Origin: Escherichia phage ST31
Length of the DNA stretch: 39,693 bases
Strand: one strand, 5' to 3'
Sequence record: NC_047829.1
This document shows positions 1-39,693 of this stretch, piece by piece; within the stretch, counting starts at the first letter, position 1, and each line of letters opens with the position of its first letter. Position numbers and translations under genes: made by a program. Under the pieces are notes generated by a model. The model saw nothing but the letters and a program-made list of their open reading frames with translations. It was not told the DNA's origin and searched no databases.

Positions 1-513
1 GGCAAAGGCGCGTTCACTAAGTGCTACCTGAAGGATTGCGGGAAGCGTGTAATTCTGGTCTCTTCTGACCCGATAAAGGAGTGTATGGCGTGGGGATGGT
101 TTCCTGAGTCTCCACTGTTCCCTGAAGTCAAGATGATTGAGGTAGGCACGTATGAGATGGACTACATGCCACCAACGCGAGGTCTCAAGGCGCATTTAGA
201 TGACGACCAGTGGCAACTCTATCAGGTGCTGCGCGACTGCTTCTCACGGTCTCCGGTATTCTCTCGACCTGCTGACCTGTATCACAAGTGGTACGAGATA
301 TTCCAAGCTGCACACGACAGGTCTGAGACTGAGACTGTGCGGGAAGGTCTGATGGCTGTGCTGATGGCGCTGGACGCTTGCGCTAACTTCGGGTCAGACA
401 TTCAGTTTGAGATAAGCCCACGCAATGTACGGGCCGTGAACGGCAAGTTGATACTGGTGGACTGCTTCTTCCTTGTGTCCAAGCTGCAAGAGGTGAGGTC
501 ATCAAGATGGTAA
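1..513 (+). CDS. Atypical protein kinase-like early protein (T7 gp0.7 position); 5' end lies at 39672-39693 across the window junction
   Basis: Frame 1 is open from base 1; joined to 39672-39693 through the 10-nt end overlap it reads MKLIGKGAFTKCYL...RVILVSS, a glycine-rich loop resembling T7 gp0.7 LGNGHFSAAY...RVIKVG as I recall it; about 174 aa in total. Confidence 0.6.
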   Translation, partial: GKGAFTKCYLKDCGKRVILVSSDPIKECMAWGWFPESPLFPEVKMIEVGTYEMDYMPPTRGLKAHLDDDQWQLYQVLRDCFSRSPVFSRPADLYHKWYEIFQAAHDRSETETVREGLMAVLMALDACANFGSDIQFEISPRNVRAVNGKLILVDCFFLVSKLQEVRSSRW

Positions 514-656
514 CTTATGGTCTCTGCCAGCACCACGTCACCAACGCCCGGCTTATGGTAAAGACCGGGCAGTTAAACCACGATGCGACCATGCGCCACT
601 TGAAAGCGGTCTATGAGGGCCGCAAGCGTATACACGACAGTTTGCACGCTGAGTGA
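507..656 (+). CDS. Small early hypothetical protein (49 aa)
   Basis: ATG 507 preceded by GAGGTGAGG; overlaps kinase stop; below ORF-track size cutoff; translated by eye. Confidence 0.3.
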   Translation: MVTYGLCQHHVTNARLMVKTGQLNHDATMRHLKAVYEGRKRIHDSLHAE

Positions 657-722
657 TAAACGAGAGGTCATCGACTGATAGATGGCCTCAAAGATTACCA
701 CTTACATTGATAGGAGTTAACT

Positions 723-890
723 ATGAAACAACTTACAGGCATAGCACTTTACGCAACCTTTACGGCTTGGCTGACTGCGGTATTCACTGATGGGAACGCA
801 TTACAACTAGGCTGGATGGTAGCGGATATTATCTTCGCTCCGGTAGGGGTCGTGCGGGGCATCTTGATATGGTTTGGATTGGTGGGATAA
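723..890 (+). CDS. Small hydrophobic early protein (55 aa)
   Basis: TAGGAG 6 nt upstream of ATG 723; hydrophobic product (MKQLTGIALYATFTAWLTAVF...ILIWFGLVG); conflicts with minus-strand ORF 749-931, which I reject. Confidence 0.4.
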   Translation: MKQLTGIALYATFTAWLTAVFTDGNALQLGWMVADIIFAPVGVVRGILIWFGLVG

Positions 891-893
891 ACT

Positions 894-983
894 ATGAGTA
901 TTGGACATTGGGTATGTCTGTCTCCGGTCATCTGGATGATAGGTTATGGGATATACGACTGTATTAAACGGAAATCGCTATGA
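894..983 (+). CDS. Very small hypothetical peptide (29 aa)
   Basis: ATG 894 four nt after previous stop; stop TGA overlaps next ATG (ATGA at 980-983), suggesting translational coupling. Confidence 0.2.
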   Translation: MSIGHWVCLSPVIWMIGYGIYDCIKRKSL

Positions 984-1177
984 TATCTGCACTATTGATA
1001 GCCATAGGCTATGGACTTATCATCTACGTACTGGTGAGTGACATCAACAAGGCGCGTAAAGTCTATAAATTCAACTATGTACGTCTGGGTCGCTGGACTG
1101 TACGTCAACCTAACGGACGATTCATGCGCAACTTAGCGAACGTCTGGGATATAGCAACTCTTGGGAGCAAACTGTAA
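980..1177 (+). CDS. Small early hypothetical protein (65 aa) with N-terminal hydrophobic segment
   Basis: ORF track; start overlaps upstream stop, stop overlaps downstream start. Confidence 0.45.
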   Translation: MISALLIAIGYGLIIYVLVSDINKARKVYKFNYVRLGRWTVRQPNGRFMRNLANVWDIATLGSKL

Positions 1178-1437
1178 TGAAAACCGTATACACTCACAAA
1201 TCATCTAGCCGTAGCCGCATGGAGCAAGCCAATCGTGATATGTTCTTACAGCGCCGCATGATAGCTGAGGGCCATAAGTCCGAGCTGATGTGTCTGGTGT
1301 ATGGGGGACGACCAATCACCGACGATGGTAGACTTCTGGTCTCAGGCTGGAAGGCGATAGACCAACGGTCAACCATCAAGCACACGACTCATGGTGACTT
1401 CAGTCATCTCCACGCTAACCCATTGATATGCAAGTAA
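1177..1437 (+). CDS. Early hypothetical protein (86 aa)
   Basis: ORF track; GGGAG upstream; start ATG overlaps previous TAA; not present in T7 at this position. Confidence 0.5.
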   Translation: MKTVYTHKSSSRSRMEQANRDMFLQRRMIAEGHKSELMCLVYGGRPITDDGRLLVSGWKAIDQRSTIKHTTHGDFSHLHANPLICK

Positions 1438-1442
1438 TTCTG

Positions 1443-1465
1443 ACTTAACTATCACTATAGGACTC
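1443..1465 (+). promoter_or_regulatory. Phage RNA polymerase promoter, immediately upstream of the RNA polymerase gene
   Basis: TAACTATCACTATAGGA, one of 11 copies of the CTATCACTATAGG motif; analogous to T7 CGACTCACTATAGGGAGA. Confidence 0.7.
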
Positions 1466-1535
1466 AAGGTCTAAGACTCCAAGTGAAAGACCAAAGAGAC
1501 TTTAAAGTGAAAGACTAATAACAAGGACTTTAAGT

Positions 1536-4217
1536 ATGAGCGTCATCTCTATTGACAAGCACGACTTCTCTGATGTGTCGAACGCCATTGAGCCGTTTAA
1601 CCTGCTGGCTGACCACTACGGGCAAGACCTTGCAGTCAAACAGCTTCAGCTTGAGCACGAGGCATACACTGAAGGCGAGCGACGTTTCATCAAGAACCTT
1701 GAGCGCCAGACTGATCGCGGGGAACTGGCAGACAATCAGGTCGCCAAGCCTTTGATGCAGACTCTGGTCCCTAAGATTGCGCAAGCCGTCAAGGAGTGGC
1801 ATGAAGGTCCAGACGGGAAGCTGTCAACCTCTCGTCCGAGCGTAGCGTTCACCATGCTGAGCACTGAAGAGAAGGCCGTCAAGGACCGCTCTCTGCGCAT
1901 CTCCTGTGAGTCTGCTGCGGTTATCATACTGAAGGTCATTCTCTCCAAGCTGGTCAAGCCTGAAGGGATACCGATTACACCTATGGCCTCCGCGATAGGT
2001 CGCACACTTGAAGATGAAATCCGTTTCGGTCGAATTCGAGACAAGGAGCAGGAGCACTTCAAGAAGGCGATAGCTGAGAACCTGAACAAGCGAGCGGGGG
2101 TATCCTACAAGAAAGCCTACATGCAAGCGGTCGAGACCTCCATGCTGGAGCAAGGCCAACTGGAAGATGCGTGGGGGACTTGGAGTCCGACCGAGGCGGT
2201 CCACGTTGGCATCAAGATGCTTGAGATTGTCATCCAGTCTACACAGCTGGTCGAGCTTAAGCGTTACGGTGCTGGCAATGCTGCGGCTGACGTTGAGATG
2301 GTCCACCTGTCAGACTTCTGGGTCAAGAAGATGGCCCAACGTGGCTTCAGCCTTGCGGGTATCGCGCCAGTCTATCAACCTTGCGTAGTTCCACCTAAGC
2401 CGTGGACTGGAGTCGTGGGCGGTGGGTATTGGGCCAAAGGTCGCAGACCATTGCCACTGATTCGCTTAGGGTCTAAGTCTGCGGTGGCACGTTACGAAGA
2501 CGTGTACATGCCTGAAGTATATGACGCTGTTAACATCATCCAGAATACGCCTTGGAAAGTGAACAAGAAGGTGCTGGACGTGGTGAACATGGTCGAGAAG
2601 CTGAACAATACGCCTATTGATGACATCCCTCAAATGGAGCCACTGAAGCCTGAGGACTATGCGGGTGAGACTGAAGAAGAACTCAAGGCATGGAAGAAAG
2701 CTGCTGCCGGTATCTATCGTCGCGAGAAGGCCCGACAGTCACGCAGATTGTCGCTGAGTTTTATCGTCAGCCAAGCGAACAAGTTCTCTCAGTTCAAGGC
2801 CATCTGGTTCCCGTACAACATGGACTGGCGCGGTCGCGTCTACGCTGTGCCGATGTTCAACCCTCAGGGTAACGACATGCAGAAAGGTCTTCTGACTCTG
2901 GCAGTCGGTAAGCCTATTGGTGCTGATGGTTTCAAATGGCTGAAGGTCCACGGTGCAAACTGTGCGGGTGTCGATAAAGTAACCTTCGAGGAGCGCATCA
3001 AGTGGGTGGAAGATAACCACGACAACATCATGGCTGCTGCCAAAGCACCGATGGATAGCATTGAGTGGTGGGGCAGGTTAGACTCTCCGTTCTGCTTCCT
3101 TGCGTTCTGCTTCGAGTATGCTGGCGTAATGCACCACGGCCTGTCTTACTCCTGCTCGCTACCGATAGCGTTCGATGGGTCCTGCTCTGGGATTCAGCAC
3201 TTCAGCGCGATGCTTCGAGACCACATCGGTGGACATGCAGTAAACCTAACGCCATCCGGTAAGGTCCAAGACATCTATCGAATCGTGTCTGACCGCATTG
3301 AGGAAGAACTCAAAGTCCTGCTGGTTAACGGTACGGACAACGAGATGGTGACTCACGAGGACAAGAAAACTGGTGAGATTACCGAGCGTCTCAAGCTGGG
3401 GACACGAGAGCTGGCCCGTCAGTGGCTGACCTACGGTATGTCACGCAAGGTCACTAAGCGTTCGGTCATGACTCTGGCCTACGGGTCGAAAGAGTACGGA
3501 TTCGCAGACCAAGTGTACGAGGACATCGTGATGCCAGCTATTGACTCAGGGTCTGGCGCTATGTTCACTGAACCAAGCCAAGCGTCTCGCTTCATGGCTA
3601 AGATGATTTGGGAAGCTGTGAGTGTGACCGTAGTCGCTGCGGTTGACGCGATGAAGTGGCTTCAAGGTGCTGCCAAGCTGCTGGCTGCTGAAGTGAAGGA
3701 CAAGAAGACTGGCGAAATCCTGAAGCCATGCCTTCCGGTACACTGGGTAACACCTGATGGTTTCCCGGTCTGGCAGGAATACCGCAAGAAGGATACCACT
3801 CGTCTGAACCTGATGTTCTTAGGGTCATTCAATCTTCAGCCTACCGTCAACAGAGGTACGAAGAAAGAGCTGGACAAGCACAAGCAGGAGTCAGGCATTA
3901 GCCCGAACTTCGTCCACTCACAAGATGGCAGCCACCTCCGCAAGACTGTAGTCCACACTCACCGCAAGTATGGCGTGATGTCATTCGCAGTGATTCACGA
4001 TAGCTTCGGGACCATCCCGGCTGACGCTGAGTATCTGTTCCGTGGTGTCCGTGAGACGATGGTCGAGACCTACCGCGACAACGATGTGCTGCTTGACTTC
4101 TACGAGCAGTTCGAATACCAGCTTCATGAGAGCCAGCGTGACAAGTTGCCTGAGCTTCCGAAGAAAGGTAAACTGAATATCGAAGACATCTTGTCTTCAG
4201 ACTTTGCATTCGCTTAA
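1536..4217 (+). CDS. Single-subunit DNA-directed RNA polymerase (T7 gene 1 homologue)
   Basis: 893 aa; long colinear blocks matching T7 RNAP as recalled (PFNLLADHYG, MFQPCVVPPKPWTG, AIWFPYNMDWRGRVYAV, DGSCSGIQHFSAMLRD, HDSFGT, C-terminal FAFA). Confidence 0.98.
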   Translation: MSVISIDKHDFSDVSNAIEPFNLLADHYGQDLAVKQLQLEHEAYTEGERRFIKNLERQTDRGELADNQVAKPLMQTLVPKIAQAVKEWHEGPDGKLSTSRPSVAFTMLSTEEKAVKDRSLRISCESAAVIILKVILSKLVKPEGIPITPMASAIGRTLEDEIRFGRIRDKEQEHFKKAIAENLNKRAGVSYKKAYMQAVETSMLEQGQLEDAWGTWSPTEAVHVGIKMLEIVIQSTQLVELKRYGAGNAAADVEMVHLSDFWVKKMAQRGFSLAGIAPVYQPCVVPPKPWTGVVGGGYWAKGRRPLPLIRLGSKSAVARYEDVYMPEVYDAVNIIQNTPWKVNKKVLDVVNMVEKLNNTPIDDIPQMEPLKPEDYAGETEEELKAWKKAAAGIYRREKARQSRRLSLSFIVSQANKFSQFKAIWFPYNMDWRGRVYAVPMFNPQGNDMQKGLLTLAVGKPIGADGFKWLKVHGANCAGVDKVTFEERIKWVEDNHDNIMAAAKAPMDSIEWWGRLDSPFCFLAFCFEYAGVMHHGLSYSCSLPIAFDGSCSGIQHFSAMLRDHIGGHAVNLTPSGKVQDIYRIVSDRIEEELKVLLVNGTDNEMVTHEDKKTGEITERLKLGTRELARQWLTYGMSRKVTKRSVMTLAYGSKEYGFADQVYEDIVMPAIDSGSGAMFTEPSQASRFMAKMIWEAVSVTVVAAVDAMKWLQGAAKLLAAEVKDKKTGEILKPCLPVHWVTPDGFPVWQEYRKKDTTRLNLMFLGSFNLQPTVNRGTKKELDKHKQESGISPNFVHSQDGSHLRKTVVHTHRKYGVMSFAVIHDSFGTIPADAEYLFRGVRETMVETYRDNDVLLDFYEQFEYQLHESQRDKLPELPKKGKLNIEDILSSDFAFA

Positions 4218-4229
4218 CAGGAGAGAGTT

Positions 4230-4430
4230 ATGAAATTTGCACACAAGCAGACTGGCGTTAAGGGTGGGACTCAAATCGTGACCGTAACAGAGCACAACGG
4301 AAAGGGTCTGGTGAAGACCACTGTCATCCCTACCGAGATGTCAAAGCAGCTTAACGTCCAGTTCAAGTGGCTTGTTAAGCAGGTGGAGCAGACGCACGAG
4401 CAAGTCCTTAAAGAGGCGGCAACCAAATGA
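4230..4430 (+). CDS. Hypothetical protein (66 aa), lysine-rich
   Basis: ORF track; AGGAGAG upstream of ATG; no T7 counterpart at this position. Confidence 0.5.
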   Translation: MKFAHKQTGVKGGTQIVTVTEHNGKGLVKTTVIPTEMSKQLNVQFKWLVKQVEQTHEQVLKEAATK

Positions 4431-4508
4431 CAGACCTGCAGTTACTGGCATTGTGGCTGGGAGCACTAGCAATATTCACTCTAATCCAACGCAGAAGAGG
4501 TTAACACT

Positions 4509-4979
4509 ATGTTCGGTAAGTCAAAACTTAAAGCACAAATCAAAGAGTTGAGCATGAAGGTGACATACTTGGAGCGAGAGGTAACTGTCCTGGACAAGGA
4601 CAATGAGCGACTGAAGGATAAGCTCGCTGAATCAGAGCGTAAGCGCTTAACGCCACCAGCGGCTGTAACTGTAAAGCGTATGGTAGGCATCAATTTCAAG
4701 GCACTGTTCGACGGTAAGTATCAGCCCACTGAGTTCAAGATAGGTCTTGGCAAGTGTGGGAAGGTGGTCCACTACTTCGAGGTGACTAAGCGTGACGACC
4801 GGACGCTTACCATCCACCAGTATCACACAGACGGGTCGTCTAAGGACTTCGAGTACCGACTGAGCGACATTGATGGAAGCATCCAATACGACTACGAGAT
4901 GATGGAAGTATATGGTAAGGAGGCTGAGAAGGAACGTATAGTCCAAGCCTTCCGCAACATGCCACGATTCATGCCCTAA
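4509..4979 (+). CDS. Hypothetical protein (156 aa) with predicted N-terminal coiled coil
   Basis: ORF track; charged heptad-like N-terminus (KLKAQIKELSMKVTYLEREVTVLDKDNERLKDKLAESERK); no T7 counterpart recognised. Confidence 0.55.
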   Translation: MFGKSKLKAQIKELSMKVTYLEREVTVLDKDNERLKDKLAESERKRLTPPAAVTVKRMVGINFKALFDGKYQPTEFKIGLGKCGKVVHYFEVTKRDDRTLTIHQYHTDGSSKDFEYRLSDIDGSIQYDYEMMEVYGKEAEKERIVQAFRNMPRFMP

Positions 4980-4997
4980 ACTATCACTATAGGATTA
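4975..4997 (+). promoter_or_regulatory. Phage RNA polymerase promoter
   Basis: AAACTATCACTATAGGA. Confidence 0.75.
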
Positions 4998-5040
4998 GAC
5001 TCAAGGTCATGACTCAAAGTCGTGGCCTTCATGATTAACC
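4995..5040 (+). promoter_or_regulatory. RNase III processing hairpin (T7 R1.1-like)
   Basis: TTAGACTCAAGGTCATGACTCAAAGTCGTGGCCTTCATGATTAAC; AAGGTCA pairs with TGGCCTT; resembles T7 R1.1 (AAGGUCAUUCGCAAGAGUGGCCUUUAUGAUUG) as recalled. Confidence 0.6.
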
Positions 5041-5074
5041 CTAACATAACGTAAACTACTGGAGATTTAACAAC

Positions 5075-5254
5075 ATGTACCAGAACACTATCAACTTCGA
5101 GCGCATCCGTGAACGTCAGCAGACTGAAGGTTACATTCCTAAGGGCCGCAAGCTGAACAAAACTAAACGTGGTGGCGGTATCAAGGGCGCTTTCCGAAAC
5201 GCTGAGGGTAAAGACTCTCTGGTCAACCAAGAGAAATACTTCGTAGGAGTGTAA
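5075..5254 (+). CDS. gp1.1-like small basic protein (59 aa)
   Basis: Translated by eye (below track cutoff); contains KGRKLNKTKR, which I recall as conserved in T7 gp1.1; sits behind promoter plus RNase III site as in T7. Confidence 0.55.
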   Translation: MYQNTINFERIRERQQTEGYIPKGRKLNKTKRGGGIKGAFRNAEGKDSLVNQEKYFVGV

Positions 5255-5257
5255 GCC

Positions 5258-5509
5258 ATGAGTAAACGTTGGTTATTTGATGCATCCCCGAGCCAGTGGT
5301 CAGCGTTAGGACGGACTCACCGCGAGATGAGTGAGGCGGGACTTGAGGTCCGAATGGATGAACTGCCGCGCTCACGCACAACGCTGGTCCACATCATTGA
5401 AGCAGACGGTTGGAGGATTCTGGTCTCCCGCGAATTTACCGAAGATGAAATCTTTAGCTGTGAGCAATGGTGCTTGCGGCAACTGCATGACTATAGGAGC
5501 TGGAAATAA
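5258..5509 (+). CDS. gp1.2-like protein (possible dGTPase inhibitor homologue)
   Basis: 83 aa, AGGAG RBS, position between 1.1 and ligase; similar size and C-terminal WK as T7 gp1.2; similarity weak. Confidence 0.55.
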   Translation: MSKRWLFDASPSQWSALGRTHREMSEAGLEVRMDELPRSRTTLVHIIEADGWRILVSREFTEDEIFSCEQWCLRQLHDYRSWK

Positions 5510-6579
5510 TGACTACTACTCTCAAGACTAACCCGCACCGCGCTGTAGATTACTCTGAGTCCGGCGTTAAGAAAGCGCTGGAAGCTGCCGGGTCGCTGGA
5601 AGCTGAAGTGAAGTATGACGGTGTGCGTATAAACATCCCGGTCTTCCCTACAGGTGAGACCCAATGGCTGAGCCGTGAGTCCAAGCCTCTTCCAGCCCTT
5701 GAGTGGCTATCAGTCCTGACCAACATCGACAACATCGTGGAAGACCAACAGAGGGCTAGTGACTGGCGATGGTTCCTGAAGCAGGCTGGCTACGAAGGCA
5801 CTGGCCTGATGATTGACGGTGAGGTCATGGTAAAAGGAGTGGACTTCAATACGTCTTCAGGTCTCATCCGAACGAAGTGGGTAAAGCAAAAGAACTTTGA
5901 GTTTTCAACTGGTGAGCACTGGGGTAAGGACTGGAAGAAAGAGAAGCTACAATTCTGTCTGGACGAGAGGTTCATCAAAGTGGTCGTATACGGAGTCATC
6001 GACCTTAACGTCATCACCGACCCGAAAGCAGAAGGTCCTATCCATAGCGTAACACGCCTGAAGGCCGAAGCTATCGTCCCTCTCCTCCAGAAATACTTCC
6101 CTGAAATCGACTGGGTTCTGTCTGAGTCACACACGGTCTATGACCTTGAGTCGCTCAACTCCCTATACGAAGAGAAGCGTCTGGAAGGACATGAGGGTCT
6201 GGTAGTCAAGGACCCGCTGGGTAAGTACAAGCGTGGCAAGAAGTCTGGCATGTGGAAAATGAAGCCTGAGGAGACCATCGACGGGACCGTGTGTGGCCTC
6301 GTGTGGGGGACCCCGGGTAAGGCTAACGAAGGTAAGGTGATTGGCTTTGAGGTGCTGCTTGAGGATGGCATGGTGGTTAACGCCTGCGGTCTGACTGAAG
6401 AACAGAAGGACGAGTTTACACTAGCTGTTAAGACTCAGGAGCTAAACGGTGACAACCACGCCTATGAAGGATGGCAGTGTGAGGTCCTATTCATGGAGCG
6501 CTTCCCTGATGGCTCCCTTCGTCACCCTAGCTTCAAGTGCTGGCGTGGAACGGAAGACAATCCAACCGTTAAGAGTTAA
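5509..6579 (+). CDS. ATP-dependent DNA ligase (T7 gene 1.3 homologue)
   Basis: 356 aa; adenylation motif KYDGVR (in EVKYDGVRINIP); size and position as T7 ligase. Confidence 0.95.
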   Translation: MTTTLKTNPHRAVDYSESGVKKALEAAGSLEAEVKYDGVRINIPVFPTGETQWLSRESKPLPALEWLSVLTNIDNIVEDQQRASDWRWFLKQAGYEGTGLMIDGEVMVKGVDFNTSSGLIRTKWVKQKNFEFSTGEHWGKDWKKEKLQFCLDERFIKVVVYGVIDLNVITDPKAEGPIHSVTRLKAEAIVPLLQKYFPEIDWVLSESHTVYDLESLNSLYEEKRLEGHEGLVVKDPLGKYKRGKKSGMWKMKPEETIDGTVCGLVWGTPGKANEGKVIGFEVLLEDGMVVNACGLTEEQKDEFTLAVKTQELNGDNHAYEGWQCEVLFMERFPDGSLRHPSFKCWRGTEDNPTVKS

Positions 6580-6588
6580 CTAAACGTC

Positions 6589-6632
6589 AACCCAGTGGTC
6601 TTCGGAATGCTGGGTTTCTTTGCGTTTGGGGA
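6589..6632 (+). terminator. Putative intrinsic terminator for host RNA polymerase (T7 TE-equivalent)
   Basis: Hairpin CCCAG..TTCG..CTGGG followed by TTTCTTTGCGTTT just after ligase, where T7 carries TE. Confidence 0.5.
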
Positions 6633-6643
6633 ACCAGCCTGAC

Positions 6644-6666
6644 CCTAAGCTATCACTATAGGACAA
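6644..6666 (+). promoter_or_regulatory. Phage RNA polymerase promoter
   Basis: GCTATCACTATAGGACA. Confidence 0.7.
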
Positions 6667-6694
6667 CCATAACTTCGACCTAAGGAGGCCGACC

Positions 6695-6955
6695 ATGTTT
6701 AAGAACTTAATGTTCAACCGTTATTCCAATACCTTCCATCTGTCCAACAACCCGTTCGCATGTATTAAGCGCAACGAGAAGCTGGGCTACTTCGGGAAGG
6801 CCGTTAAGTTATCGCCTACAGTCTTCGCCTTGATTACTCCGGGAAAAGCTGAAGAGGCTCGCCAGAAGAAAGAGACCAGCGTACCTGTGGTCTACACTAA
6901 GTGGCCTCGCGTTCGTCTGTTCGTTGAGTTCGTGAAGGAGGTATTCAATGATTAA
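6695..6955 (+). CDS. Hypothetical protein (86 aa)
   Basis: ORF track; AAGGAGG RBS; gene 1.4-1.8 region of T7 map. Confidence 0.55.
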   Translation: MFKNLMFNRYSNTFHLSNNPFACIKRNEKLGYFGKAVKLSPTVFALITPGKAEEARQKKETSVPVVYTKWPRVRLFVEFVKEVFND

Positions 6956-7388
6956 GGTAGGGGATGTTGTGCGCTACGCTGGGACGCATAGTCAATTTAT
7001 TGGCCGCGTCGATGGTAAGGTTCTTAGCGTATGTAACTCAGGGGACTCAGTAGAGGTGGAATGGCCGGGGTTTATTGATCCAGTTAGACACGGTAAAGCC
7101 GCACTAATTATCACCAATACTGTTCAGGACAAACCAGAAGTCCGTGACGACGGTGTATACAAGCCGTCCCACTATCAGGTCTTTGACGGCGTGGAATCCA
7201 TTGAGATTATCGCCCGGTCCATGACTGTCAGTGAGTTCCGTGGTTTCTGCATGGGTAACGTCCTGAAGTATCGACTCCGAGCTGGTAAGAAGTCAGAGCT
7301 GGCTACTATGGAGAAGGACCTGAACAAAGCAGCCTTCTATCAGGAGCTGTTCGACCTGCATAAAGATAAGTGCTATGACTCCAAGTAG
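6948..7388 (+). CDS. Hypothetical protein (146 aa), possibly DUF3310-like
   Basis: ORF track; C-terminal PSHY..IE.I...GN.LKY..R..K pattern reminds me of DUF3310; from memory only. Confidence 0.55.
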   Translation: MIKVGDVVRYAGTHSQFIGRVDGKVLSVCNSGDSVEVEWPGFIDPVRHGKAALIITNTVQDKPEVRDDGVYKPSHYQVFDGVESIEIIARSMTVSEFRGFCMGNVLKYRLRAGKKSELATMEKDLNKAAFYQELFDLHKDKCYDSK

Positions 7389-7466
7389 CTGGTGCTTTAG
7401 GCAGTGGGTCTCAACCGGGAATGTGGACTACCTGTCCATGTACCATATGTGGAAGGAGAAAGGACT

Positions 7467-7625
7467 ATGAGCCTTGAGGAAAAGAAATACATCGTGGAGC
7501 TTGAGGGTCGCGTTCAGGCCTTCGAGGTTCCGGTGTACGCAAAGTCTCTTGAAGAGGCTACCCTGAAGTCCCAAGAGTATGAGGACGCTGGGTTTGTGGT
7601 CGGACGGATTCGTCCTGAGACCTAA
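7467..7625 (+). CDS. Host RNA polymerase inhibitor (T7 gene 2 homologue)
   Basis: 52 aa from ATG 7467 (GGAAGGAG RBS); [13 protein letters not shown]...[11 protein letters not shown] matches T7 Gp2 FEVPIYAETLDEA...PAGFEVTRVRP as recalled; track ORF 7404 has an N-terminal extension I do not favour. Confidence 0.85.
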
Positions 7626-7643
7626 ACTATCACTGTAGGACAG
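7621..7643 (+). promoter_or_regulatory. Phage RNA polymerase promoter (variant CACTGTAGG)
   Basis: AAACTATCACTGTAGGACA; one substitution from the consensus core. Confidence 0.6.
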
Positions 7644-7682
7644 ACGTCCAGTTCGTAACTTTAAATTAGGAGATTTACACCA

Positions 7683-8381
7683 ATGGCTAAAGAGCAACTG
7701 AAGACTTTCACCACTCCGGTAGCTGGTATCGTTGAGCCTTACGCATGGCTGAACAAAGCAGACACCAAGTTTAATGAGCGTGGTGAGCATAAGGTTAACC
7801 TGACATTCGACCTGAGCAACCCGAAGGTCCGTAAGATGATTGATGTCTTACAGAAGATTCACGACGATGCGTATGCGAAAGCACTCGCAGACCACGAGAA
7901 GAACCCACCTCAGGTTCAGCGTGGCAAGAAGCCTATTGAACCACGAGAAGGCGACATGCCGTGGATTGAGAATGGTGATGGTACTGTTACCCTGAAGTTT
8001 AAATGCTTCGCGTCTTACCTGAAGGATGGCAAGTCAGAGCCTATCGTATTACGGTTCTACGACACCGATGCTAAGTTAATCCGTGACGTCCCGAATATTG
8101 GCGCTGGCTCCAAACTGAAGGTCAAGTTTAAAGTCCTGCCGTTCAAGTGGAACGCTGCGACTGGTGCAAGCGTTAAGCTCCAGCTTGAGTCCTGCCTTCT
8201 GGTAGAACTGAAGGAATGGAAAGGTGATGGTGCTGGTGGAGATGGTGGCTGGGGTGGTGATGAAGACCTTGGCACTGGCTACAAAGCGTCAACCGATGGT
8301 GACTTCGGGTCTGATGACTTCAGTGACGATGGTTCCGAAGGTGGTGACGACTCTAACTCTGGTGGCGATTACGACTTCTAG
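7683..8381 (+). CDS. Single-stranded DNA-binding protein (T7 gene 2.5 homologue)
   Basis: 232 aa; RGKKP, NGDGT, GSKLKVK, GASVKLQLES blocks; acidic C-terminal tail ending DYDF. Confidence 0.95.
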   Translation: MAKEQLKTFTTPVAGIVEPYAWLNKADTKFNERGEHKVNLTFDLSNPKVRKMIDVLQKIHDDAYAKALADHEKNPPQVQRGKKPIEPREGDMPWIENGDGTVTLKFKCFASYLKDGKSEPIVLRFYDTDAKLIRDVPNIGAGSKLKVKFKVLPFKWNAATGASVKLQLESCLLVELKEWKGDGAGGDGGWGGDEDLGTGYKASTDGDFGSDDFSDDGSEGGDDSNSGGDYDF

Positions 8382-24538: not shown

Positions 24539-24561
24539 CCTTAACTATCACTATAGGGACT
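24539..24561 (+). promoter_or_regulatory. Phage RNA polymerase promoter (phi13-like), embedded in an inverted repeat
   Basis: TTAACTATCACTATAGGGAC; flanked by GGGCCTATAG (24524-24533) and its reverse complement CTATAGGCCC (24560-24569). Confidence 0.75.
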
Positions 24562-24590
24562 ATAGGCCCTTAAAGTTATAAGGAGACTTT

Positions 24591-39671: not shown

Positions 39672-39693
39672 ATGAAACTGATAGGCAAAGGCG
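39672..39693 (+). CDS. 5' end of kinase-like gene, continuing at base 11 of the window
   Basis: ATG 39672 after AAGGA; MKLIGKG...; last 10 nt of the window (GGCAAAGGCG) are identical to the first 10 nt. Confidence 0.5.

Follow-up and report, generated by a model that had tools for sequence, protein, structure and literature searches.

The window, by which we mean the whole stretch of 39,693 nucleotides that was analysed (NC_047829.1), is the genome of Escherichia phage ST31, a Kayfunavirus of the K1F/EcoDS1 group that is circularly permuted and has about 94% identity to its closest GenBank relatives. All the features discussed here are on the plus strand. Gene 1 (1536–4217 in the ORF list) encodes a T7-type single-subunit RNA polymerase of 893 aa, which is annotated as RNA polymerase in all relatives. 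It is followed by ORF A (4230–4430), whose product is a basic protein (+5) of 66 aa and the ortholog of K1F 'gp1.1', by a micro-ORF (4427–4504) for a predicted single-pass membrane peptide of 25 aa, and by a homolog of gene 1.05 (4509–4979) of 156 aa. The phage promoter phi1.1 overlaps the stop codon of the latter, and beyond it lies the gp1.1 homolog proper (5075–5254, 59 aa), recognised by PF08200 (E 6.1e-11) and phrog_4383.

The original prediction had placed two genes, of 66 and 156 aa, between gene 1 and the phi1.1 promoter. Both are found there, each starting with ATG, and the order of gene 1, the 66-aa gene, the 156-aa gene and gp1.1 is kept in 15 of 15 related loci. They had also been called non-T7 genes, and this label holds, since the interval is empty in T7 (gene 1 stops at 5822, phi1.1A is at 5848 and nothing lies between). 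Their number has to be corrected to three, because the 25-codon ORF in the 78-nt gap had been overlooked.

Besides the conserved gene order, several features mark the two longer ORFs as genuine coding genes, well outside what chance would give. Shine-Dalgarno sites precede ORF A (GGAGAG, 4220–4225) and gene 1.05 (AGAAGAGG, 4493–4500), dN/dS is 0.04–0.36 for the former and 0.13–0.36 for the latter, and third-position changes are in excess in both. For the micro-ORF, pN is lower than pS in all comparisons (0.02–0.28 vs 0.20–0.66), the differences at the three codon positions are 386/335/781, and length and frame are the same in 15 of 15 Kayfunavirus loci. All three ORFs are under purifying selection. 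One may ask if these ORFs are untranslated chance frames in a long leader or intergenic RNA. All three have a low dN/dS, differ mostly at third codon positions and keep their length and frame; with the proper spacing of the Shine-Dalgarno sites and the curated Pfam family to which one ORF belongs, this leaves the idea a practically negligible probability. The RNA of the gap also shows less structure than shuffled sequences do (z +1.30) and a search of Rfam gave no hits; an RNA element at this place was rejected in favour of coding.

Transcription of the interval

Upstream of the three ORFs there is a single phage promoter, directly 5' of gene 1 (1445–1462, TTAACTATCACTATAGGA); it has one mismatch to the genome's own consensus, and its EcoDS1 counterpart is annotated as 'promoter phi'. 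Promoter phi1.1 (4977–4994, TAAACTATCACTATAGGA) matches the same consensus perfectly. Its position agrees with that of annotated promoters, at the same place in EcoDS1 and overlapping the 3' end of gene 1.05 in T3. No phage-promoter-like sites were found between 1462 and 4977. The T3-like phage AP5 differs in this respect, as a phi1.05 promoter is predicted directly 5' of its gene 1.05, where ST31 has none. The leader that starts at phi1.1 contains a hairpin (about 4990–5043, MFE −20.2 kcal/mol, z −1.99) that is positionally equivalent to R1.1, annotated at the corresponding place in T3, and by this position it is a candidate RNase III site R1.1. The 3' arrangement of gene 1.05, phi1.1 and R1.1 is the same in both phages.

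Concerning termination, the only terminator-like hit on the plus strand in 1–8000 is inside gene 1. The early terminator TE is located 3' of the ligase gene (gene 1.3), at about 6592–6625, by a GC hairpin with a T run and by alignment to EcoDS1, with 92% identity over 97 columns taking in the region annotated there as 'terminator TE'. In EcoDS1, the annotated signals are host promoters, the phi promoter that precedes gene 1, and TE, which follows gene 1.3. With no phage promoter in 1462–4977 and no terminator-like site that separates them from gene 1, the ORFs must share a transcript with the RNA polymerase gene, as had been predicted. Their description as early genes stands only in part, because a phage promoter is present upstream of gene 1, and the phage RNA polymerase can thus transcribe the three ORFs too. 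Genes 1.1–1.3 are equally within the host RNA polymerase unit that ends at TE. The three genes, having no promoter of their own, are transcribed by read-through from gene 1: the host RNA polymerase reads them from the early promoters on to TE, and the phage polymerase also does so from the promoter before gene 1.

In our opinion, the best explanation of the interval between gene 1 and phi1.1, which we give a probability of about 0.5 as a whole, is that of three tightly packed accessory cistrons belonging to two evolutionary modules. The first would be formed by ORF A and the peptide and the second by gp1.05.

ORF A and the 25-residue peptide

ORF A matches phrog_8082 over its complete length (E 1.7e-40, residues 1–66 on profile positions 1–66 of 66), and it has no Pfam match at E up to 1. 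The family comprises 155 clusters and 218 GenBank phage records, all of them K1F-like phages of about 40 kb. The AF2 model (pLDDT 77.5) shows three beta strands and two helices, one of them short and the other long and C-terminal. The label 'gp1.1' that the ORF A ortholog carries in K1F (YP_424917, phrog_8082) and in EcoDS1 is misleading: membership in the T7 gp1.1 family (PF08200) is ruled out for ORF A, which is unrelated to it, and PF08200 is matched instead by another ORF, at 5075–5254. The K1F ortholog is also directly after gene 1 and is followed by the same micro-ORF; gene 1.05, which ST31 carries, is wholly missing from K1F.

The ATG of the micro-ORF overlaps the stop codon of ORF A (ATGA), which implies translational coupling of both products, and its TAA is 4 nt before the ATG of gene 1.05. 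The encoded peptide, MTDLQLLALWLGALAIFTLIQRRRG (25 aa), has a Kyte-Doolittle mean of 2.25 over residues 4–20 and an RRRG tail at the C-terminus. Given the hydrophobic span, the charged flank and the coding conservation, it is predicted to be a single-pass membrane micro-protein; it is from conservation that we infer its translation. K1F and three lineages farther away also have the micro-ORF. A blastn search finds its DNA in 206 GenBank records. Of the 60 listed, most have no annotated feature at this place, and the micro-ORF is unannotated in the GenBank records inspected. The tblastn search with the peptide gave no matches, and the comparison with PHROGs, PADLOC and NCBIfam gave no hit and no homology to characterised small membrane proteins.

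Small single-pass inner-membrane peptides are well known in bacteria and phages, such as AcrZ, MgtS, KdpF, type I toxins and phage division inhibitors. The peptide shares with them the size class, a hydrophobic span of about 17 residues and a basic end, but there is no sequence relationship, and the likeness, which we draw from general knowledge of these peptides, is physico-chemical only.

In every lineage checked, an ORF A homolog lies directly 5' of the micro-ORF, and the stop codon of the one overlaps the start codon of the other. It persists in K1F and in vB_EcoP-22664UKE3-2, both of which are without gene 1.05, and there its stop codon directly abuts the phi1.1 promoter. Conversely, the gene 1.05 genes of other lineages that have no transmembrane (TM) helix are accompanied by neither ORF A nor the micro-ORF. 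The first module would therefore be described as a basic alpha/beta protein of 66 aa together with a single-pass membrane peptide of 25 aa, a pair that may have a membrane-directed early function. It could even be that this pair is the functionally important unit of the locus, a module for superinfection exclusion, for blocking cell division or for modulating a membrane protein, and that gp1.05 is an unrelated passenger. Such a unit is suggested by the presence of the pair in every K1F-like genome examined (218 and 206 GenBank records, respectively), even at 47–55% ORF A identity, by the translational coupling, and by the hydrophobic peptide with its C-terminal RRRG, which fits an N-out/C-in single-pass insertion. 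However, its function is wholly deduced from physico-chemistry, with no PHROGs, PADLOC or NCBIfam hit to a characterised small membrane protein, and we consider it rather unlikely as a separate account; it is compatible with the two-module explanation that we prefer, not opposed to it.

The gene 1.05 protein and its family

Judged by its sequence, the 156-aa gene is not new; it belongs to the gene 1.05 family of T3 and is annotated as gp1.05 in EcoDS1. Residues 58–129 (nt 4680–4895) match positions 2–73 of the 73 in the PF25755 profile (Phage_T3_1_05) with 88.1 bits, for a cut-off of 27, and E 3.8e-25, and the whole protein matches phrog_8103 with E 1.4e-59. When the profile was checked across the family, all 33 diverse aligned members matched it. 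Residues G79, G81, C83, V87, Q104, F114 and G123 are invariant in these 33 sequences (21–74% identity) and are all present in the ST31 protein, which contains the family motif G-x-G-x-C-G together with Q104, F114 and G123.

A charged heptad N-terminus followed by a beta-rich domain had been predicted, and this architecture is borne out by the a/d register and by the AF2 model, a monomer prediction with pLDDT 94.3. The leucine zipper corresponds to a helix at aa 4–47 (nt 4518–4649), six strands form the beta domain at aa 53–134 (nt 4665–4910), and a C-terminal helix at aa 137–149 (nt 4917–4955) precedes a basic/hydrophobic tail. The a/d positions are L7, I11, L14, V18, L21, V25, L28, N32, L35 and L39, i.e., five heptads with N32 at an 'a' position, and the coil gives weak matches to GCN4 peptides (E 0.3–0.6). 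With an Asn at 'a', the zipper is most likely a parallel homodimer, in which two PF25755 beta domains would be displayed. The Foldseek search of the PDB with the whole model gave no fold match at these thresholds (best E 0.059, TM < 0.3), which does not by itself establish a new fold; sequence searches of the PDB found nothing meaningful for these proteins, and neither did the PADLOC defence/anti-defence models or NCBIfam.

Some other assignments were considered for this protein and discarded. The GenBank label 'microtubule-binding protein' of the TM1 and yong1 orthologs has as its only counterpart a match to PF13851 (GAS) within the coil, with E 0.35 and 10.7 bits vs a cut-off of 32.3. G79-x4-G84-K85 resembles the P-loop of NTPases (Walker A, GxxxxGK[ST]), but K85 is followed by V in ST31 and by T, V, N, Y or E across the family, some members do not keep K85 (GL, GH, RR), and the domain is all-beta with about 80 aa. 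A metal site formed by C83 and H106 was rejected too, as the family has a single invariant Cys and several members carry another residue in place of H106.

The closest comparison is with EcoDS1 gp1.05 (ACF15788), a full-length ortholog with 74% identity and equal length and position. The ST31 protein is a mosaic, with an N-terminal coil of the EcoDS1/TM1 type and a C-terminal domain of the L003/SH3 type. T3 gp1.05 (NP_523302) occupies the corresponding slot, 3' of gene 1 and 5' of gene 1.1, and has the same beta domain, with 35% identity over aa 55–130. It consists of the domain only (90 aa), whereas ST31 adds a leucine zipper of 50 aa at the N-terminus and, at the C-terminus, an extension of about 25 aa with a helix and a basic tail. 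The 'fusion protein' of KP32 and Przondovirus (YP_009801396, 187 aa) shares domain and slot, and a long coiled coil precedes its domain; it has an N-terminal TM helix and no C-terminal helix or tail, whereas ST31 gp1.05 is TM-less and has the C-terminal extension. According to a 2025 article (PMC12295037), no role has been published for the protein and its N-terminal region is highly variable among close relatives, which matches the mosaic N-terminus in ST31. In the literature, 'gp1.05' and 'gene 1.05' were found only in annotation tables, and 'PF25755' in no paper.

The slot between gene 1 and gene 1.1 is occupied by gene 1.05 in ST31, T3, EcoDS1, KP32-type phages and nine of ten metagenomic contigs that carry distant members; the tenth contig (L029) ends before any gene 1.1. 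The PF25755 domain occurs in 506 GenBank phage records, 310 of them from Klebsiella phages. From 143 representative clusters, 136 could be classified as short (70), long with an N-terminal TM helix at the threshold applied (48) or long without it (18), although four of the last 18 and one unclassified fragment have TM scores just below the cut-off. A C-terminal tail of at least 20 residues is present in 12 of 15 TM-less long forms vs 8 of 50 TM forms.

K1F lacks the gene, and in Citrobacter phage SH3 it is interrupted by an in-frame stop, at codon 71. Records of ORF A outnumber those of gene 1.05 in Escherichia (88 and 41) and Salmonella (59 and 40) phages, which indicates that a substantial fraction is without gene 1.05; these are organism counts and give a rough estimate. 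On this comparative evidence, gene 1.05 is a dispensable indel cassette, found in some kayfunaviruses and cleanly missing from others. Taken jointly, the identity of the genes, their coding status, architecture, transcriptional context, family distribution and dispensability are in our view as good as certain.

The TM helix of the KP32-like proteins raises the question of whether the 25-aa peptide is a membrane anchor that has become separated from gp1.05, in a split-gene (Rosetta-stone) relationship in which both would form one tethered complex like the fused TM-coil-1.05 proteins. The order of TM peptide, coil and domain, with 4–5 nt between the cistrons, mirrors the fused form, basic residues follow both kinds of TM segment, and most long family members have an N-terminal TM helix. 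Against it, the micro-ORF is intact in the two phages that lack gene 1.05 and tracks ORF A through the overlapping stop and start codons, four TM-less long 1.05 genes (L019, L029, L030 and L031) have no micro-ORF upstream, and the frame offset between the cistrons is not conserved (+1 or +2). Examined in K1F, in 22664UKE3-2 and in eight metagenomic contexts, the functional link did not hold up and was rejected; we regard the split-gene reading as improbable.

Possible roles and practical interest

In the two-module explanation, gp1.05 would act as a zipper homodimer that carries two PF25755 domains, followed by the C-terminal helix and the basic tail. In most long family members, the N-terminal TM helix would hold the same domain at the inner membrane, on its cytoplasmic face. 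The protein may therefore be a non-essential host-interaction factor, for takeover or counter-defence, with a target at or near the inner membrane. It may be a small host-factor binder, the role that the original prediction had suggested from its architecture; the searches of homology, structure and literature assigned no function to it. The mechanism taken alone, i.e., dimerisation, membrane proximity of the target and a host-interaction role, is tentative, and we would put it somewhat below even odds. ST31 gp1.05 has no TM helix, so that membrane proximity is extrapolated from relatives. Moreover, 70 of the 143 clusters are domain-only like T3, without coil or TM helix, which means that the core domain can act without tethering or dimerisation. 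A joint reading, in which ORF A and the peptide would be a coupled membrane-acting early module and PF25755 a new-fold effector that Studiervirinae phages bring to the inner membrane on its cytoplasmic side, the long forms mostly through a fused TM helix and ST31 in some other way, seems to us unlikely.

A different role could be sought in phage DNA replication, where gp1.05 might organise or regulate the primary origin. That of T3 is at the 5' end of gene 1.05 (in its record, 5682–5758 overlaps the gene start), and that of T7 is in the same interval between gene 1 and gene 1.1. A promoter and ACTTTAAG-type repeats are directly upstream of gene 1.05 in several lineages, and the coiled coil has a sub-threshold likeness to YabA (NCBIfam E 0.093; Pfam E 2.6e-4 in one family member). 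However, the YabA matches are generic for coiled coils and far under the cut-off (13 vs 130 bits), T7 and K1F replicate normally without gene 1.05, many relatives are membrane-anchored and no nucleic-acid-binding fold was detected. We consider a replication role very improbable.

The findings are largely ordinary and their novelty is modest, as both of the ORFs first noted belong to known families; the new detail is the gene of the 25-residue membrane peptide, which is mostly unannotated. The biology of the T7 group is not overturned: what is gained is a tidy-up and a modest lead. Annotation has been misleading in several cases, with 'gp1.1' used for two different genes and with the labels 'microtubule-binding protein' and 'fusion protein'. 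If a membrane module and a PF25755 effector did exist, they would represent an uncharacterised class of membrane-directed host takeover, counter-defence or exclusion, which would adjoin the RNA polymerase gene of hundreds of phages that are candidates for therapy. Chassis for therapy and engineering are often taken from the kayfunaviruses, Przondoviruses and T3-like phages, and early genes that are dispensable or that touch the cell envelope therefore matter. Gene 1.05, as an indel cassette of a family with more than 500 GenBank phage records, would be removable or replaceable in engineered phages.

Coding status of the interval between gene 1 and gene 1.1

The original prediction placed two genes that T7 does not have between the RNA polymerase gene (gene 1, 1536-4217) and the gp1.1 promoter; the observation is correct but incomplete, and its interpretation is partly right. 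The two ORFs, at 4230-4430 (66 aa, here ORF A) and 4509-4979 (156 aa, here gene 1.05), are exactly as claimed, each preceded by a Shine-Dalgarno sequence, and because in T7 the gene 1 stop lies just 25 nt from phi1.1A, both are absent from that phage. The order gene 1, 66-aa gene, 156-aa gene, gp1.1 is invariant in 15 related loci. Values of dN/dS (Nei-Gojobori, relatives versus the window) are 0.04-0.36 for ORF A and 0.13-0.36 for the 156-aa ORF, with the third codon position dominating the changes in both, and on sequence grounds they are genuine protein-coding genes. They are not new kinds of gene and belong to known, uncharacterised families. ORF A, in which no Pfam domain was found, is a member of phrog_8082; its 155 protein clusters and 218 GenBank records come exclusively from K1F-like phages of roughly 40 kb. 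It is named 'gp1.1' in K1F and EcoDS1, yet it is unrelated to T7 gp1.1; in EcoDS1 that name is given to two different genes.

The 78-nt 'spacer' between these genes, unusually conserved in the alignment across loci, holds a third ORF of 25 codons (the micro-ORF, 4427-4504, MTDLQLLALWLGALAIFTLIQRRRG), which the two-gene count had missed. Its start codon shares bases with the ORF A stop (ATGA), and 4-5 nt separate its TAA from the ATG of the 156-aa gene. The length is constant in all 15 loci, the start being GTG in one of them (L009), and differences at codon positions 1/2/3 amount to 386/335/781, with pS of 0.20-0.66 versus pN of 0.02-0.28. Considered as RNA, the region shows less structure than shuffled controls and has no Rfam match; the product has no PHROG match. 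A hydrophobic span of ~17 residues followed by a basic tail makes the product a predicted single-pass membrane peptide. Its DNA can be found in 206 phage records of GenBank; in most of the 60 matches listed no annotated feature lies under it, and it is unannotated in K1F, EcoDS1, TM1 and MBBL139. The 25-aa gene is an annotation-level discovery. Its RRRG-stop codons (4493-4504, AGAAGAGGTTAA) also provide gene 1.05 with its Shine-Dalgarno sequence, and they are unchanged in K1F, which has no gene 1.05, so that either the tail of the peptide is itself under constraint or gene 1.05 was lost recently.

Identity and architecture of gp1.05

Over aa 58-129 the 156-aa protein scores 88 bits, versus a cut-off of 27, with the profile of Pfam PF25755 ('Enterobacteria phage T3 gene 1.05 protein'); it also matches phrog_8103, and its EcoDS1 ortholog is annotated gp1.05. 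T3 gp1.05, a protein of 90 aa, shares 35% identity with aa 55-130 of the window protein, and the layout 3' of the gene is the same in T3, with phi1.1 overlapping the gene 1.05 end and R1.1 following. The proposed coiled coil and beta-rich domain are borne out by an AlphaFold2 model (pLDDT 94.3, 33-sequence alignment), in which residues 4-47 form a helix, 53-134 hold six beta strands and 137-149 form a further helix. Five clean heptads run along the N-terminal helix, and Asn32 occupies one of their 'a' positions, a pattern classically associated with parallel dimeric zippers; gp1.05 would dimerise through this zipper and present two PF25755 domains. Within kayfunaviruses the domain is conserved and the coil is hypervariable and mosaic: the window protein joins an EcoDS1/TM1-type coil (pN 0.06) to a beta domain of the type of Citrobacter phage SH3 and locus L003 (pN 0.03-0.05, L003/L004 allele). 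The conserved domain occurs with four or more unrelated coil 'alleles' (window 4509-4979 versus loci L001-L015).

When 1.84 billion representative proteins were searched exhaustively with an HMM, 144 clusters emerged, one of which, a repetitive coiled-coil protein, was left out as spurious. A simple rule based on hydropathy and length allowed 136 of the remaining 143 to be assigned: 70 are short and domain-only, 48 are long with an N-terminal transmembrane (TM) helix and 18 are long and scored TM-less, although four of these 18, and likewise one unclassified fragment, fall just under the threshold. The KP32/Przondovirus 'fusion protein' falls among the TM forms; a 2025 Przondovirus paper independently describes a variable N-terminus and says that no role has appeared in print (PMC12295037). 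The domain is carried by 506 GenBank records (310 from Klebsiella phages), where gp1.05 can be found labelled 'microtubule-binding protein' or 'fusion protein'. A C-terminal helix with a basic/hydrophobic tail (~35 residues) is present in 12 of 15 TM-less long forms, the window included, versus 8 of 50 TM forms (P0241-P0383; kinship ignored), and this tail may take the place of the membrane anchor or provide a further contact. We think that membrane tethering is a family-wide architectural lead. As most long relatives are predicted to anchor the PF25755 domain to the inner membrane, on its cytoplasmic face, the partner of gp1.05 is likely to be membrane-proximal.

Context and dispensability of gene 1.05

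Gene 1.05 sits directly 3' of gene 1 or its accessory ORFs in every genomic context examined, and upstream of gene 1.1 in all those whose contig reaches that far. It is dispensable, being cleanly absent from K1F (L022, NC_007636.1 5262-5827) and vB_EcoP-22664UKE3-2 (L021, MZ234011.1), where the micro-ORF stop, GGTTAA, directly abuts the CC(C)TAAACTATCACTATAGG phi1.1 promoter. Spanning this junction, MZ234011 has instead an annotated ORF of 38 aa in a different frame.

The micro-ORF might be taken for a detached membrane anchor of gp1.05. This reading was rejected because the micro-ORF is intact in both phages without gene 1.05, because an ORF A homolog with an overlapping micro-ORF persists in three more distant lineages (ORF A being 47-55% identical in the two compared), and because four TM-less long 1.05 genes occur elsewhere without ORF A and without the micro-ORF. 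Retention of the micro-ORF without gene 1.05, together with its pairing with ORF A elsewhere, points to two units. ORF A and the peptide form one, found in every K1F-like genome examined, which is to all appearance translationally coupled and is predicted to act at the membrane; gene 1.05 is an indel cassette. In SH3 (KU687349; L004:2711-2713) an in-frame stop at codon 71 interrupts an otherwise intact gene 1.05, and is either a viable nonsense mutation or a sequencing error. An extra ORF of 76-86 aa lies between gene 1 and ORF A in EcoDS1 (L001:1584-1814), 22664UKE3-2 (L021:444-674) and a third locus (L020:2442-2702). The interval from gene 1 to gene 1.1 is an indel hot spot.

Transcription, a possible origin and the genome

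A perfect phage promoter (phi1.1, 4977-4994) shares bases with the stop codon that ends the 156-aa ORF; downstream of it come a stable hairpin (z -1.99) and the real gp1.1 homolog (5075-5254, PF08200). There is no phage-promoter-like site between 1462 and 4977, and no credible terminator between gene 1 and 4979. In the curated EcoDS1 annotation, three promoters for the host polymerase stand at the left end, gene 1 is immediately preceded by a phage promoter, and TE comes after gene 1.3; the phage promoter and TE are conserved in the window, at 1445-1462 and ~6592-6625 respectively. From these signals, ORF A, the micro-ORF and gene 1.05 are thus co-transcribed early with gene 1 by the host polymerase, as had been proposed for ORF A and gene 1.05; the promoter at 1445-1462, which T7 lacks directly upstream of gene 1, means that the phage polymerase very probably transcribes them too.

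At 1445-1535 the consensus promoter is followed by a weak hairpin and GACTTTAAAG / GACTTTAAG-type repeats, and a similar promoter, hairpin and ACTTTAAG repeats lie upstream of gene 1.05 in five other loci (L017, L018, L019, L030 and L031). T3 has its primary replication origin at the place of this array before gene 1.05, and the elements at 1445-1535 might mark the kayfunavirus origin. A replication-origin role for gp1.05 itself is weakly suggested by the position of T3 gene 1.05, which is the one observation in its favour; we think that gp1.05, as the product of a variable, dispensable early cassette, most plausibly modulates host function or defence.

The window is ~94% identical to Escherichia phages P762, YZ1, TM1 and EcoDS1 (Megablast, first 20 kb), all of them Kayfunavirus (Studiervirinae). 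Its bases 1-10 equal bases 39684-39693 (GGCAAAGGCG), and an ORF starting at ~39673 (MKLIGKGAFTKC...) crosses the junction of the ends, which makes it a complete genome, circularly permuted and roughly 39.7 kb long; it is an assembly of a linear genome with the terminal repeats collapsed. The phage promoter consensus TAAACTATCACTATAGGA gave 12 sites with at most three mismatches in the window versus 0.01 expected by chance, ten of them with at most two. At 24541-24566 lies a promoter core with an incomplete tandem copy after it (CACTATAGGGACTATAGG). Among related records, OR786095 (L016) is a Kayfunavirus deposited as 'Staphylococcus phage MBBL139', others carry Enterococcus names, and some label T7-type RNA polymerases 'N4-like RNA polymerase'.
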